From: a virus
Lineage: Duplodnaviria; Heunggongvirae; Uroviricota; Caudoviricetes
Direction: 5' to 3' (one strand)
Virus record (IMG/VR): IMGVR_UViG_2698536628_000019
DNA: 7,350 bases
Below, one piece after another: positions 1,254 to 4,502 of the stretch. The translations under genes were made by a program, and so were the position numbers. Below the pieces are notes generated by a model. The model worked only from the letters and a program-made list of their open reading frames with translations. It was not told the origin of the DNA and did not search any database. How positions within the stretch are numbered: the first letter of the stretch is position 1; every line of letters starts with the position of its first letter.

Positions 1254-1311
1254 AAAAAGGGCGGCAGAGCAGCCACGGAGTAAAACTGATACCGCCAAAC
1301 GTCACCAGAAA
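1254..1311 (-). ncRNA. dicF: DicF-type small regulatory RNA (Hfq-dependent sRNA processed from the dicB operon transcript) with 3' intrinsic terminator
   Basis: Minus-strand sequence tttctggtgacgtttggcggtatcagttttactccgtggctgctctgccgccc followed by ttttt matches the E. coli DicF sequence as I recall it, with about one mismatch. The GGCGG...CCGCC stem plus U-tract forms its terminator. Flanked by YdfC-like upstream and DicB-like downstream, the canonical order. Not verified by alignment. Confidence 0.75.
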
Positions 1312-1652: not shown

Positions 1653-1871
1653 TTAACGCGGGTATGTAATCATTCTGGCAATGCTTAATGCCGCTGCTTT
1701 TTCCAGATTGGTGATATCCTGCTCCAGAGCGGACAGATTTTCAGCCTGCTTAGCCCTGGCTTCATTGGCCCATTTCAGGTCCTGCGCTGCCTTAATTTTC
1801 TGGTGCATCCACTCATAAAGTTCATCATCGGTATAGTCTGGCGCGATGATGACGGGTTCTCGTTTCTGCAT
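1653..1871 (-). CDS. YdfC-like small protein (72 aa), predicted coiled-coil, dicB-operon member
   Basis: Track ORF 1653-1871 (-), MQKREPVIIAPDYTDDELYEWMHQKIKAAQDLKWANEARAKQAENLSALEQDITNLEKAAALSIARMITYPR. Strong SD AAGGAG 5 nt upstream of the ATG (rc of 1872-1886). Size and position upstream of dicF match ydfC of Qin-type prophages; name assigned by position and length only. Confidence 0.7.
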   Translation of the reverse strand: MQKREPVIIAPDYTDDELYEWMHQKIKAAQDLKWANEARAKQAENLSALEQDITNLEKAAALSIARMITYPR

Positions 1872-2299: not shown

Positions 2300-2480
2300 T
2301 GAGAAATCCTCTGTTTCCCCTTAACGCCGGGGTAGCGGAACAAAAAACCTGCTGCATAGTTAAACGTAATCCCCGCCGTCATGTTCATACGCCTCAGGCT
2401 GGCTACTTAACCCCTGACCACTGCCGGGTAACTCGAAGTATTGCCCTGCGTTCTGTGGGGCGGGGTGGGTTTATGGATAC

Positions 2481-2534
2481 AATTTACAAATTAAAATTTA
2501 ACTGGTCAACATGTTTATTATTAAATTTGTAATT
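2481..2534 (-). promoter_or_regulatory. Putative leftward (dicB-operon-type) promoter flanked by inverted operator-like half-sites
   Basis: On the minus strand: -35 TTGACC (plus 2504-2509) and -10 TAAATT (plus 2481-2486), 17-bp spacer. Inverted half-sites ACAAATT (2486-2492) and AATTTGT (2524-2530) bracket it. The 14-mer TTAAATTTGTAATT (2521-2534) is identical to 3762-3775 in the repressor/cro intergenic region. Promoter call is by eye against sigma-70 consensus. Confidence 0.4.
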
Positions 2535-2542
2535 GCGGGCTG

Positions 2543-2571
2543 TTGCATCAGTCCCAAAATGGGACTACTAT
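2543..2571 (+). promoter_or_regulatory. Putative higBA promoter with palindromic operator in the spacer
   Basis: -35 TTGCAT (2543-2548), 17-bp spacer, -10 TACTAT (2566-2571). Perfect inverted repeat AGTCCCA-AAA-TGGGACT at 2550-2566 lies within the spacer/-10. No SD upstream of ATG 2578, and the predicted transcription start falls at or near the ATG. Confidence 0.4.
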
Positions 2572-2577
2572 ACAGTT

Positions 2578-2880
2578 ATGAAGATTATCTCAGTTAAAAC
2601 ACTCAGGGATTTTTGGGCGGAGAATCCTGATGCAGAACAACCGCTAAGGGCATGGGTGGATGAGGCGGCAAAAGCTGACTGGAAAAGCCCAGCAGACATT
2701 AAGGCACAATACCGAACGGCCAGTATATTGAAAAACCGGCGCGTGGTATTCAACATAAAAGGTAATCATTACCGTTTAATTGTTGCAATTGCGTATCAGC
2801 GAGGATGGGTATTTGTTAAATTCATCGGAAACCACAAGGAATACGATGCTATTGATGCTGATACCATCGAACTGGAGTAA
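2578..2880 (+). CDS. higB: Type II toxin, HigB family (RelE/ParE-fold mRNA interferase), 100 aa
   Basis: Track ORF 2533-2880 begins at TTG; first ATG in frame is 2578 (MKIISVKTLRDFWAENPD...). C-terminal segment VVFNIKGNHYRLIVAIAYQRGWVFVKFIGNHKEYD matches the recalled E. coli HigB/YgjN motif (VFNVGGNELRVVAMVFF...HKEYD). Toxin-first order with antitoxin 2 nt downstream. Confidence 0.8.
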   Translation: MKIISVKTLRDFWAENPDAEQPLRAWVDEAAKADWKSPADIKAQYRTASILKNRRVVFNIKGNHYRLIVAIAYQRGWVFVKFIGNHKEYDAIDADTIELE

Positions 2881-2882
2881 GC

Positions 2883-3242
2883 ATGAACATCAAACCTATT
2901 CGTACAGAGCAAGATTATGAAGCCGCGTTGCGTGCTGTTGAACCCATGTTCGACAATGAGCCCGAAATTGACACGCCTGAGGGGGATTTTTTTGAGGTGA
3001 TGTGTTTGCTAATAGAGGAATATGAAAAAAAACATTATCCCATTGAGCCACCATCCCCAATTGAAGCTATAAGATTTCGCATGGAACAGCAGGGGCTGAC
3101 TGTGAAAGATTTGGAACCCGCAATTGGGAAAAAAAATCGGGTTTATGAGGTGTTGAATGGTACCAGAAGCCTTACGTTACCAATGATTCGCCGTCTTCAT
3201 AATCAATTTGGTATCCCCCTGGAAAGCCTGGTTGGATTATAA
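2883..3242 (+). CDS. higA: Type II antitoxin, HigA family (C-terminal XRE-type HTH), 119 aa
   Basis: Track ORF 2883-3242. SD GGAG at 2873-2876. C-terminal HTH region GLTVKDLEPAIGKKNRVYEVLNGTRSLTLPMIRRLHNQFGIPLESL resembles recalled E. coli HigA/YgjM. Starts 2 nt after the higB stop. Confidence 0.8.
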   Translation: MNIKPIRTEQDYEAALRAVEPMFDNEPEIDTPEGDFFEVMCLLIEEYEKKHYPIEPPSPIEAIRFRMEQQGLTVKDLEPAIGKKNRVYEVLNGTRSLTLPMIRRLHNQFGIPLESLVGL

Positions 3243-3258
3243 AATCTGCTAGTCATTT

Positions 3259-3306
3259 GCCTGATGCTCGTTCCAGAAAAGGAATGCATCAGGCAGTTTT
3301 GTTTTT
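3259..3306 (+). terminator. Rho-independent terminator for higBA, overlapping the stop codon of the convergent repressor gene
   Basis: Stem GCCTGATGC (3259-3267) / GCATCAGGC (3286-3294) with an internal UUCC/GGAA extension, then U-tract AGTTTTGTTTTTC (3295-3307). The minus-strand repressor stop codon (rc of 3289-3291) lies inside the right arm. Confidence 0.6.
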
Positions 3307-3681
3307 CTGCCGCAGTAACTCTTCAAGTTTCCGTTTATAGAAATCGCGTTTTTGCTCCATATCACGAATGATCTGCTCTGCGTCGCTTTGAGGTAACTCA
3401 TCTAAAAGCGATATGATTTTTCGTTGTTGTTCTGTAAGTTGCGGTTGGTTGTCATTACTGGATACAGCCATTTTATCGCCGAGAGTTTCTTCTTCCATAA
3501 AGAACCAATGGACGGGATGTTGTGAGAGCTCTGCTAATTTTTCCAGTTTATCCATTCTTGGCATCACGCCTTTCAACCAACCTTGCACGGATTGGGGTTT
3601 TACACCAAGACGTCTTCCCAGCTCTGACTGGTTTATATTCAATTCCTGCAACACCTGCTGAAGGCGTTTTACAAAGATCAT
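3289..3681 (-). CDS. DicA-like prophage repressor (XRE-family HTH with C-terminal helical domain), ~130 aa
   Basis: Track ORF 3289-3687 starts at GTG; likely start is ATG 3681 (MIFVKRLQQVLQELNINQSELGRRLGVKPQSVQGWLKG...), with GAGGGG SD upstream. N-terminal HTH and a C-terminal segment (LTEQQRKIISLLDELPQSDAEQ...KRKLEELLRQ) resembling recalled DicA (LSPKELELLELFNALPESEQDTQ...NKLFEELLKARQ). Divergent from a Cro-like gene. Confidence 0.8.
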   Translation of the reverse strand: MIFVKRLQQVLQELNINQSELGRRLGVKPQSVQGWLKGVMPRMDKLEKLAELSQHPVHWFFMEEETLGDKMAVSSNDNQPQLTEQQRKIISLLDELPQSDAEQIIRDMEQKRDFYKRKLEELLRQKNKTA

Positions 3682-3687
3682 CACCAC

Positions 3688-3807
3688 CCCTCGTAAACTA
3701 GTTCCGCGATCCTACAGAAAAAATTGATAAGTGGCATTACAAATAGAAGTTGAAATTTAAATTTAAATTTGTAATTATCGGTGTCATCGTAAAGTTCGGA
3801 GGGAAAC
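3688..3807. promoter_or_regulatory. Repressor/cro intergenic switch region: divergent promoters with operator-like inverted repeats
   Basis: 9-bp inverted repeat ATTACAAAT (3735-3743) / ATTTGTAAT (3766-3774) separated by 22 bp. Tandem AAATTT x3 (3752-3769). Rightward candidate promoter TTGAAA (3749-3754), 17 bp, AATTAT (3772-3777). GGAGGG SD before ATG 3808. Confidence 0.55.
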
Positions 3808-4068
3808 ATGCAAAAAAGTACTCAAGTGAAAATCCTGTCAATAATGAGCCAATCAGAATTAGGGCGTCGTCTTGGTAAAACACCGCAAACCATAAGTGGG
3901 TGGTTTAAAAAACGAGTGCCAGCGGAGGAGGTTATACCAGCATGTGAGGCGCTTGACTGGGGAGTAACTCCGCATGAATTGCGCCCTGATAAATACCCTA
4001 ATCCAACCGATGGTTTACCTGTTGAGTATCAGGCTAACGCACAAGCAGCGGCGGGAGTTGATTCATGA
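3808..4068 (+). CDS. Cro-like HTH regulator, YdaS/DicC family (86 aa)
   Basis: Track ORF 3808-4068. HTH segment SQSELGRRLGKTPQTISGWFKKRVP and ...GVTPHELRPD resemble recalled YdaS (Rac) / DicC (Qin). Divergent from the repressor. ATGA overlap with the next gene. Confidence 0.8.
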   Translation: MQKSTQVKILSIMSQSELGRRLGKTPQTISGWFKKRVPAEEVIPACEALDWGVTPHELRPDKYPNPTDGLPVEYQANAQAAAGVDS

Positions 4069-4502
4069 AAATCAAGCATGAGCACATCCGCATGGCGATG
4101 AATGCGTGGCTGCTTTATCCGAGGGTAGGGCGCAAAAAAATCGCTGATGATATAGCGACAGCATATTTTGAGCTTGAAATGACTTATCCACCAATGCATG
4201 ACACCTCTACGACAGAGGGTATTGGATTGAACATACAAAATATTTTTCGCTGGCTTGAAAAGGATACGCCTGATGCTGTTGAAAAAATTCAGGCACTAAT
4301 TCCAGCTATCCTGACTGTTCTTCCGCGTGAACTGCGTTATCACCTCAGTATTTTTGACACTGTTGAGCGCCGTGCATTACTGGCGGCCCAGGAAGCGTTG
4401 AGCACGGCAATTGATGCGCATGATGATGCAGTCCAGGCAGTTTACCGGAAAGCGTATTTCAGCGACGGCGGGTCATCCGGCGAGTCTGTTGTGGTGCATT
4501 GA
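4065..4502 (+). CDS. ydaT: YdaT-like protein (CII-like regulator family, 145 aa)
   Basis: Track ORF 4065-4502. Starts MKIKHEHI... and carries the segment KIQALIPAILTVLPRELRYHLSIFDTVERRALLAAQEALSTAIDAHDDAVQAVYRKA, which I recognise from Rac-prophage YdaT. Translationally coupled to the Cro-like gene (start overlaps stop). Confidence 0.75.
   Translation: MKIKHEHIRMAMNAWLLYPRVGRKKIADDIATAYFELEMTYPPMHDTSTTEGIGLNIQNIFRWLEKDTPDAVEKIQALIPAILTVLPRELRYHLSIFDTVERRALLAAQEALSTAIDAHDDAVQAVYRKAYFSDGGSSGESVVVH

Follow-up and report, generated by a model that had tools for sequence, protein, structure and literature searches.

The segment between positions 2578 and 3242 of the window (i.e., the whole 7,350-nt stretch of DNA that was analysed) is very probably an intact, presumably autoregulated, bicistronic type II toxin-antitoxin (TA) operon of the family of the HigB (PF09907)/HigA (XRE-HTH) pair of Escherichia coli K-12, as judged from sequence comparisons. 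The span consists of two coding sequences only, both read from the list of open reading frames and from the sequence itself: the toxin gene higB comes first (2578-2880, plus strand, ATG at 2578, TAA at 2878-2880, 100 aa) and is followed after 2 nt (GC) by higA (2883-3242, plus strand, ATG at 2883, TAA at 3240-3242, 119 aa), with the promoter/operator and the terminator lying just beyond the two ends. The pair is an ordinary one, already named in public annotation, given that the RefSeq record of the lambdoid prophage of E. coli O26:H11 11368, with which the window is 99.8-100% identical, already has a "HigB family toxin". The first-pass annotation of this DNA had described two plus-strand frames of these lengths and spacing and had placed them in the HigB/HigA family, and both points are borne out by the frames themselves and by the Pfam, PDB, PADLOC, and PHROG matches of the two proteins.

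HigB matches the Pfam HigB_toxin profile (PF09907) over positions 1-74 of 74 with 113.7 bits (E=4.8e-33), against a cut-off of 27 bits, and also matches the PADLOC model PD-Lambda-2_A (E=1e-40) and PHROG 5734 (E=1e-46), while its residues 1-93 align, at the level of the sequence only, with the HigB chains 5ifg_A and 5ycl_B of the PDB (E=3e-7). The residues L9, F58, N59, G62, N63, R66, H86, and Y89, singled out by conservation, are invariant in 92 distinct homologues and all kept in HigB, which also retains D90 of the C-terminal H-x-x-Y-D block and departs from the columns that are at least 85% conserved at a single position (T85N). HigB is thereby classified as a RelE-superfamily toxin of the HigB (PF09907) family.

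HigA has a toxin-binding part at its N-terminus and an XRE helix-turn-helix (HTH) at its C-terminus, the latter matched by Pfam HTH_3 at residues 63-115 (E=4e-6). This domain is complete and ends where the alignment with the K-12 HigA ends (5ifg_B, residues 6-112 of the window protein, E=3e-9). The length of the protein is the norm of its family, as the best 120 homologues, which are 74-99% identical to it, have 113-134 aa (nearly all 118-126), and it also matches positions 1-119 of the 402-position PADLOC profile PD-Lambda-2_B (E=2e-42). The NCBIfam models returned no match for HigB or HigA; the Pfam and PDB scores of the two proteins nevertheless place their identity as HigB and HigA far beyond chance. 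Compared with copies that are 82-99% identical, the dN/dS is 0.02-0.11 for higB and 0.02-0.04 for higA, values which indicate that both genes are under strong purifying selection, and this is consistent with function.

The first-pass annotation had also credited the pair with promoter-like signals and a terminator of its own, a view which is supported by conservation across loci and by folding. The predicted promoter (2543-2571, plus strand) is made up of a -35 element TTGCAT (2543-2548), a 17-nt spacer, and a -10 element TACTAT (2566-2571), and the spacer encloses the palindrome GTCCCAAAATGGGAC (2551-2565), which is found once in the window and represents a candidate HigA operator. This promoter/palindrome block is kept in copies that are only 73-80% identical and stand in unrelated contexts, with the conservation ending to the left of ~2541. 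Of the 86 distinct upstream regions of the family, 67 contain a perfect 5+5 inverted repeat that includes CC and has its centre 20-28 nt upstream of the start codon (1.7 expected from shuffles), 60 have a TAnnnT ending 4-9 nt upstream of the start codon (15.9 expected), and only two have a motif similar to a Shine-Dalgarno (SD) sequence upstream of higB. The predicted transcription start (~2578) is the A of the higB ATG, and the higB mRNA is probably leaderless; higB has no SD sequence, whereas higA has one, GGAG, read from the sequence at 2874-2877 (plus strand), inside the end of higB and 5 nt upstream of the higA ATG.

Downstream of the pair, an intrinsic terminator (3257-3306, plus strand) is predicted from a hairpin (3257-3296) followed by TTTTGTTTTT, in a region that corresponds to the inverted repeat I14. 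With a dG of -23.5 kcal/mol (z=-3.58), the hairpin is more stable than any of 200 shuffles. The repressor gene is convergent with higBA, and its stop codon (3289-3291) lies within the terminator, which appears to be specific to the prophage context, given that the conservation with plasmid copies ends at the higA stop codon. A consensus promoter/terminator scan called neither signal of the pair, the promoter being missed because its -35 matches the consensus in only three of six positions, and the terminator because of the loop limit of the tool (3-8 nt).

The K-12 HigB/HigA pair (YgjN/YgjM; PDB 5IFG, 5YCL, and 6KML) shares with the window pair the PF09907 domain, the toxin-first bicistronic order, an alignment over the full length, and the two-part build of the antitoxin with its C-terminal XRE HTH. 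On the other hand, the two HigB proteins are only 28% identical, HigA has 119 aa in the window and 138 aa in K-12, the K-12 operon is chromosomal and that of the window prophage-borne, and the subfamily of the window, in contrast with K-12, appears to be leaderless, with an operator of the TCCCA-N-TGGGA type. Cleavage by the K-12 HigB is limited to translated mRNA, and its operon has a single promoter, which HigA represses and which is induced through Lon (PMC2814082). By analogy with what is known of the family (Christensen-Dalsgaard 2010, PMC2814082; PMC11980606), the HigB of the window would cleave mRNA in the ribosomal A site, and HigA, as the labile partner, would bind and neutralise it, and would repress the operon through the palindrome. 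A leaderless mRNA of higB and the good SD sequence of higA may lead to an excess of the antitoxin despite the toxin-first order, and expression of the operon in the lysogen would not depend on the phage repressor. A literature search found no paper on this higBA pair.

By nucleotide identity, the host element is a near-complete lambdoid prophage, that of O26:H11 11368, and not Qin. It had initially been taken for an element of the Qin/DicA type, but its cI-like XRE-HTH repressor (3289-3681, minus strand, 130 aa; PGAP WP_000578360.1; HTH_3 E=7e-9), the open reading frame of which extends to a GTG at 3687 beyond the PGAP start at 3681, reaches 50 bits against the NCBIfam DicA model, below the cut-off of 101, and is not scored as a DicA orthologue. 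The nucleotide homology with the Qin-like locus L003 is limited to the leftward leader and ydfC-dicB. The neighbours to the left of the pair are ydfC (1653-1871, minus strand), the DicF RNA (1259-1310, minus strand; Rfam 75 bits), and, to the left of DicF on the same strand, dicB and a DUF1482/ydfD-like gene, with the 5' part of dicB masked by an N-run (1097-1200). The coordinates and strands agree with the description of higBA as separating the repressor gene from the ydfC-dicF-dicB operon, in the opposite orientation to both, and the order cited for canonical Qin is also correct, as dicA is followed directly by ydfA-ydfB-ydfC-dicF-dicB-ydfD in K-12 Qin. A minus-strand frame of 99 aa (PHROG 21318), antisense to the ECs_2282 gene, was considered as the first gene of the leftward operon and is disfavoured by the codon positions of the substitutions. 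Among isolated phage genomes, megablast found a single match, a 72-nt flank in phage Evi, and the protein-mode search found only relatives of ~42% identity.

The left side of higBA is bordered by an OL/PL-like leftward operator/promoter (2481-2532, minus strand) with two inverted copies of the 18-mer TTACAAATTWAAATTTAA (2484-2501 and 2515-2532) and, between them, a leftward promoter recovered by the promoter scan (TTGACC at 2509-2504, 17 nt, TAAATT at 2486-2481, minus strand); the repeats D1, D2, and I2 are also seen in this region. The 18-mer has four matches in the window, against 0.01 expected, and the other two (3749-3766 and 3757-3774) are found in the intergenic region of cI and cro, within an OR-like rightward operator (3737-3787), flanked by the repressor gene and, to its right, by the cro-like gene (3808-4068). 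In this operator, the promoter scan places divergent promoter-like sites (3750-3778, plus strand; 3787-3760, minus strand). The higBA pair occupies, by position, the slot equivalent to that of rexAB, between OL/PL and the 3' end of the repressor gene, with only 46 nt from the higA stop (3242) to the repressor stop (3289). The suggestion that the pair may alter the control of the dicB operon by the repressor is not supported by this geometry, as the operator 18-mers and the leftward promoter (2481-2532) are found on the operon side of higBA, in the same way as OL/PL relative to rexAB in lambda.

The homology with prophages of other immunities stops exactly at 2471/2472 and resumes at ~4053, and the divergent members of the same immunity type are homologous from 2314/2317 to 4013/4036. 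The segment delimited by these homology breakpoints is a mosaic immunity cassette which carries higBA (OL/PL, higBA, repressor, OR, and cro; 2472-4050).

The repressor is accompanied by higBA in each of the 148 complete E. coli genomes in which it occurs, a linkage established by comparing counts and identity bands and not full accession lists, and in all 23 viral contigs that have it, and no empty site, i.e., this repressor without higBA, was found in either set. The spacing of the repressor and higBA remains fixed despite differences in cro, ydaT, and the leftward operon, and an O121 variant keeps the linkage with a different leftward operon. [quoted passage not shown] The idea of an acquired cargo module stands in the evolutionary sense, since relatives with 82-91% protein identity are carried by plasmids and by other Enterobacterales with no phage repressor beside them, and sister prophages with the same flanks have relBE or nothing in the slot; it does not stand in the sense of a free or recent insertion, given that no empty site accompanies this repressor. 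Approximately 110 related loci, from many phyla, present the same toxin-first order, and the downstream gene has 116-153 aa in nearly all of them, with a single locus (L077) encoding a 401-aa protein with an HTH and a Peptidase_M78 domain.

Elsewhere, the slot contains relBE (O157:H7), nothing (K-12 Qin), or HigBAC (H-19B and Stx phages). The cI-N slot, which harbours rexAB in lambda and bstA in Salmonella BTP1, is recognised both as a hotspot at which the exclusion genes expressed in the lysogen show mosaic diversity (PMC8585504) and as a variable defence locus (PMC8585504; bioRxiv 10.1101/2024.02.24.581848). Both rexAB and bstA share the position of higBA, from the repressor gene to OL/PL, but their proteins and mechanisms are unrelated, and, unlike higBA, which is on the other strand, they are transcribed together with the repressor. 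The O157:H7 relBE locus is closer in its surroundings, in that its leftward leader, ECs_2282 gene, and ydfC-dicB operon are those of the window (97% identity as far as 2471), and, as in the window, a RelE-superfamily pair separates the leftward promoter region from the repressor. This pair belongs, however, to another TA family, with the antitoxin first, and follows directly after another repressor, downstream of it and in the same orientation.

The HigBAC system (E. coli NT1F31; H-19B and Stx1a/Stx2a phages) has the same Pfam HigB, with the HigB and the HigA core each 43% identical to those of the window, and shares the slot between cI and the leftward operon. Its HigA, by contrast, has 218 aa, with a chaperone-addiction tail (ChAD, residues 122-218), and the window HigA aligns to approximately residue 120 of the 218-aa HigA of Stx2a_WGPS9 and then stops, without a ChAD. 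HigBAC also needs the SecB-like HigC, a sensor of the lambda tail protein gpV, a gene with no counterpart in the window pair, as no open reading frame for a SecB-like chaperone is found downstream of higA; the third gene of the locus L118 does match PD-T4-9_C, the SecB-like model. In addition, HigBAC is co-oriented with cI, whereas the window higBA is convergent with it and has its own promoter. Membership of HigBAC is ruled out by the lack of both the ChAD and the chaperone.

One other relative is PD-lambda-2 (Vassallo et al. 2022, PMC9519451), in which protein A resembles HigB and protein B resembles HigA over its N-terminal 119 positions. In this system, B, which has a C-terminal ImmA/IrrE peptidase domain, is itself the toxic part, being toxic alone and rescued by the HigB-like A, and gene C is required for defence (PMC9519451). 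Given these unexpected roles, the parts of toxin and antitoxin in this branch are not to be presumed. PD-lambda-2B has ~400 aa, with an HTH and an M78 peptidase (cf. the fused form at L077), whereas the window HigA has 119 aa and no peptidase domain in the Pfam scan, and only 46 nt, with no gene C (P4 antitoxin-like), precede the repressor stop. Despite the strong PADLOC matches, membership of PD-lambda-2 is rejected, as the pair has neither the peptidase domain nor gene C. The characterised defence relatives need a third component (the HigC sensor, or PD-lambda-2C for defence), which the window pair does not have.

The benefit of the pair may be abortive infection or superinfection exclusion, an addiction which penalises the loss or replacement of the immunity cassette, or both; the stabilisation of the prophage and the abortive infection suggested by the first-pass annotation are likewise inferred roles. 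It is quite conceivable, if somewhat short of an even chance, that higBA is a purely selfish addiction module, in which the loss of the cassette kills the cell and no benefit of phage defence is provided. The perfect linkage with the repressor across divergent flanks would be expected of such a module, and members of the family are plasmid-borne, a setting in which HigBA modules stabilise replicons (PMC11980606), while the absence of a sensor component points in the same direction; the recognised defence hotspot in which the pair is found, where its relatives do defend, and the plasmid copy (pNE92-2) that adjoins tenpIN, which encodes the abortive-infection toxin TenpIN, argue against it, although neither is decisive.

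A broader proposal, put forward tentatively and judged rather unlikely, is that the chaperone-less HigBA is a device of both exclusion and addiction, expressed in the lysogen, which locks the host to this immunity cassette. Given that higBA is embedded between OL and cI, it would be removed whenever the cassette is cured or replaced, and curing, the replacement of the immunity region by a heteroimmune lambdoid phage, or the shut-off imposed by a phage in superinfected cells would deplete the labile antitoxin and lead to death or arrest, with a family-wide leaderless higB message and an SD-driven higA setting the ratio of toxin to antitoxin. Such a lock would explain the linkage of higBA and the repressor in 171 of 171 cases despite recombination on both sides.

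An improbable alternative is that the pair is wired into the lysis-lysogeny switch, with the operon modulated either by repressor bound to the neighbouring operator at 2515-2532, which is 10 bp upstream of the -35, or by convergent read-through from the repressor promoter, and with HigB acting in induction or establishment rather than against foreign phages. The spacing between promoter and operator is conserved (10 nt, and 9 in one variant) while the sequence of the linker varies, the phage operator stands here in place of the distal second HigA-type palindrome seen in relatives on plasmids and chromosomes, and the hairpin terminates the plus strand only. This geometry is, however, the sole basis of the idea, the operator does not overlap the -35 or the -10, and the retention of a HigA operator of the family type favours ordinary autoregulation. 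Finally, a decayed remnant of PD-lambda-2 or HigBAC, non-functional or tolerated after the loss of the antitoxin C-terminal domain and the third gene, would account for the PADLOC matches (PD-Lambda-2_A and the first 119 of 402 positions of PD-Lambda-2_B) and for the related HigBAC in the same slot, but is highly improbable, given the near-uniform short antitoxin among the closest 120 homologues and the ~110 loci, with their one fused exception, the purifying selection on both genes, the complete HTH domain, the lack of relic sequence in the 46 nt before the repressor stop, and a two-gene form that is seen as ancestral and widespread.

The reading of the locus as an ordinary, intact HigBA operon has little import beyond correct annotation. 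At the level of the slot, the cI-PL interval of lambdoid prophages collects TA modules of the RelE superfamily, with HigBA here, RelBE in O157:H7, and HigBAC in H-19B and the Stx phages. In STEC of the serogroups O26, O103, O45, O111, and O121, higBA marks an immunity type which always travels with a TA pair, and this constant companion could affect the stability of the prophage and the resistance to other phages. The apparent family-wide leaderless transcript of higB, with the operator inside the promoter, may be of interest to TA specialists, as may the fact that the HigBAC system is unannotated in the classic GenBank record of H-19B.

The two ORFs were recovered in the ORF list and in the sequence exactly where the first-pass annotation had placed them, with higB running on the plus strand from the ATG at 2578 to the TAA at 2878-2880 (100 aa) and higA following after a gap of 2 nt, from the ATG at 2883 to the TAA at 3240-3242 (119 aa, plus strand). 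The neighbours lie on the minus strand, which agrees with the described position of the pair between the repressor and the ydfC-dicF-dicB operon, opposite to both. The XRE-type repressor gene stands to the right (3289-3681, PGAP annotation), and to the left are ydfC (1653-1871), the DicF small RNA (1259-1310), which lies between ydfC and dicB as in Qin and has a full-length Rfam match (75 bits, E=1e-15; gathering score 48), and then dicB and a DUF1482/ydfD-like gene. An N-run at 1097-1200 masks the 5' part of dicB and the stretch upstream of it towards dicF; these 104 N stand for 176 nt in the otherwise identical E. coli O26:H11 11368 prophage (L001, 18626-18801).

The assignment to the HigB/HigA family was upheld by profile matches and by alignment to solved structures. 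HigB covers the whole Pfam HigB_toxin profile (PF09907) with 113.7 bits (cut-off 27 bits) and aligns over residues 1-93 to E. coli K-12 HigB (5ifg_A, 5ycl_B; E=3e-7), and HigA carries a C-terminal HTH_3 domain (Pfam, residues 63-115) and aligns over residues 6-112 to K-12 HigA (5ifg_B; E=3e-9). PF09907 toxins are ribosome-dependent mRNases with a toxin-first gene order (PMC11980606), and K-12 higBA has a single promoter, repressed by HigA, and shows Lon-dependent induction (PMC2814082). In an alignment of 92 distinct homologues from the fetched loci, the window HigB keeps all columns conserved at 85% or more except T85N, and the invariant L9, F58, N59, G62, N63, R66, H86 and Y89 are present. 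Against copies 82-99% identical, dN/dS was 0.02-0.11 for higB and 0.02-0.04 for higA, and these low ratios, with the conserved residues, indicate that both genes are intact and under selection. Two A8 runs occur in higA (3028-3035, 3130-3137); in one IMG/VR contig (L019, 4306-4494) the first is A7, giving a HigA of 62 aa beside an intact HigB, which may reflect either a sequencing error or a slippage-prone antitoxin site.

At 99.8-100% identity, the window matches E. coli O26:H11 strain 11368 (NC_013361.1) and likewise many O26, O103, O45 and O111 STEC genomes. The 11368 locus is a near-complete lambdoid prophage with the order integrase (frameshifted), exonuclease, DUF1482, dicB, ydfC, ECs_2282 zinc-ribbon gene, higB, higA, repressor, cro-like, YdaT-like, replication genes, nin-type region, lysis genes and terminase. 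This element is not Qin; its repressor reaches 50 bits against the DicA model, where the threshold is 101. A second toxin-antitoxin pair (RelE/ParE-family toxin, ParD antitoxin) lies outside the window, in the nin-type region (L001, 28405-28967). RefSeq names WP_000692026.1 “type II toxin-antitoxin system HigB family toxin”, and its partner is called HigA family antitoxin in some records; the pair is thus already annotated, and both its family and the hotspot that it occupies are well known.

Copies of the pair 73-80% identical at the DNA level are found on E. coli plasmids in unrelated contexts, and share with the window a -35-type block, TTGCAT (2543-2548), the palindrome GTCCCAAAATGGGAC (2551-2565) in the 17-nt spacer, and a TACTAT hexamer (2566-2571). 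Beyond ~2541 on the left and beyond the higA stop codon on the right this conservation ceases, and these two limits delineate the mobile cassette. The comparison extended to 86 distinct upstream regions within the family, whose carriers span Proteobacteria, Bacteroidota, Chloroflexota, Cyanobacteria and further phyla. In 67 of these regions (1.7 expected from shuffles) a perfect 5+5 inverted repeat containing CC is centred 20-28 nt ahead of the start codon, in 60 (15.9 expected) a TAnnnT hexamer ends 4-9 nt ahead of it, and only two show an SD-like motif upstream of higB. We infer that the family has an operator embedded in its promoter and that the higB message is leaderless or nearly so. Given that higA has a Shine-Dalgarno-type GGAG on the plus strand (2874-2877), 5 nt before its ATG, this arrangement would tend towards an excess of antitoxin despite the toxin-first order. 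Several enterobacterial relatives have a second palindrome ~30 nt further upstream, a place which is occupied in the prophage by the phage operator. Downstream of higA, a hairpin (3257-3296; dG -23.5 kcal/mol, z=-3.6), followed by TTTTGTTTTT, forms a plausible plus-strand terminator that overlaps the repressor stop codon and is absent from the plasmid copies. The proposal that the pair has its own promoter-like signals and terminator is therefore sustained by the conserved block and the folded hairpin, a simple consensus scan of the window having called neither.

The window contains four copies of the 18-mer TTACAAATTWAAATTTAA when up to 3 mismatches are allowed (0.01 expected), two on the left (2484-2501, 2515-2532) and two in the repressor-cro intergenic region (3749-3766, 3757-3774). 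The left pair brackets a minus-strand promoter-like site (TTGACC 2509-2504, 17 nt, TAAATT 2486-2481), and this pattern suggests that the sites are OL/PL-like and OR-like operators. In alignment, the leftward leader is common to three other prophages up to 2471, where homology ends exactly, and homology with other immunity types returns at ~4053, which places higBA inside an immunity-specific cassette (2472 to ~4050), between the predicted OL/PL and the 3' end of the repressor gene. The equivalent position in lambda is held by rexAB, and the slot has been described as a hotspot of mosaic diversity (PMC8585504) and a variable defence locus (bioRxiv 10.1101/2024.02.24.581848). An effect of the pair on repressor control of the dicB operon, as suggested in the first-pass annotation, is unsupported, since the operators and leftward promoter still adjoin ydfC-dicF-dicB.

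The non-coding stretch 2314-2471 lies immediately downstream of the predicted leftward promoter and is 90-100% conserved among lambdoid prophages that differ in immunity region and in first gene; the break at 2471/2472 falls approximately where the predicted leftward transcript would begin. The genes at 3808-4502 match Pfam YdaS_toxin and YdaT_toxin, names which suggest a toxin-antitoxin pair; their positions here are those of cro and cII. Within 1943-2299, the plus-strand ECs_2282 zinc-ribbon gene (1958-2164, NCBIfam 57 bits) overlaps an antisense minus-strand ORF of 99 aa that matches PHROG 21318 (E=8e-67). The plus-strand gene is favoured, as all four variable sites in the overlap, a small number, fall at plus-frame codon position 3, and the PHROG 21318 family may be an antisense artefact.

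In K-12 Qin, dicA is directly followed by ydfA-ydfB-ydfC-dicF-dicB-ydfD, and a Qin-like prophage of an O18:H1 strain has the same arrangement, which supports the first-pass annotation on this point. In O157:H7 prophages, the left flank is 97% identical up to 2471 and relB-relE lies downstream of a different repressor. The repressor-operator segment was found in 148 complete genomes and higBA with its flanks likewise in 148, in matching identity bands, the comparison being one of counts rather than accession lists. In IMG/VR, the same repressor accompanies every HigB of at least 97% identity at the same spacing (23 of 23 contigs), across a cro down to 83% identity, a ydaT down to 30% and a ydfC that is variable or absent, and in an O121 prophage the higBA-repressor unit is joined to a ydfA-ydfB-type leftward operon. 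An empty-site version of this immunity type was found neither among the 148 genomes, by count, nor among the 23 contigs. This constant linkage across varied flanks indicates that the pair is a fixed component of the immunity cassette. The claim of an acquired insertion can thus be accepted in the evolutionary sense, given Qin and the relBE of O157:H7, but not as a recent event, and under the refuting condition set in the first-pass annotation the gene order counts as standard among prophages of this immunity type.

The locus is very probably a canonical HigBA operon, intact and conserved, that sits at a defence hotspot. By analogy, HigB would cleave mRNA on the ribosome, and HigA would neutralise HigB and autorepress the operon, with abortive infection, exclusion or addiction to the immunity cassette as the possible benefit. 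As to the role, defence and pure addiction are given about equal weight. The relatives that have been characterised in this slot rely on a third component for sensing, which the window pair lacks; any defence would have to rest on decay of the antitoxin after shut-off. Coupling of higBA to the lysis-lysogeny switch is given a small probability.

One longer system of this slot is HigBAC. When phage genomes were searched at the protein level, H-19B and many Stx1a and Stx2a phages proved to have a HigB ~42% identical in their cI-N slot, with a HigA of 218 aa and a SecB-like protein after it (PADLOC PD-T4-9_C; Pfam). This trio is the HigBAC toxin-antitoxin-chaperone system, shown to protect against lambda-vir and Bas25 when the tail protein gpV is sensed by its chaperone (bioRxiv 10.1101/2024.02.24.581848). 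The chaperone-addiction tail of that HigA starts where the window HigA stops, and the window locus has no chaperone gene. A decayed remnant of a longer system is rejected because the two-gene form is the norm, with a downstream gene of 116-153 aa in nearly all of ~110 HigB loci and 113-134 aa (nearly all 118-126) in the closest 120 HigA homologues. PADLOC PD-lambda-2 components A and B match HigB (E=1e-40) and HigA (E=2e-42, only positions 1-119 of 402), but PD-lambda-2 has three genes, of which B, itself the toxic component, bears a C-terminal ImmA/IrrE peptidase domain and C is needed for defence (PMC9519451); the pair is ruled out as this system, as it lacks both the peptidase domain and a third gene, the distance from higA to the repressor gene being only 46 nt.

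A 401-aa HTH and Peptidase_M78 partner, typical of PD-lambda-2B, was seen at one of the ~110 loci (L077, a Planctomycetaceae MAG, 938-2143), directly after a HigB 59% identical to that of the window. The N-cI interval of the H-19B record (AF034975.3, 2625-4572) carries no annotation; the equivalent region of Stx2a_WGPS9 (L118, 3001-4342) encodes HigB, the 218-aa HigA and the SecB-like protein, and ~22 Stx1a-converting phage records show the same content. Finally, copies of the pair with a HigB ~91% identical occur on ~90-97 kb plasmids of many E. coli (L005), with 114 plasmid places counted, and the 38.8-kb O157:H7 plasmid pNE92-2 (L007, 2025-3706) has a copy with a HigB 82% identical and an adjoining tenpIN type III toxin gene.
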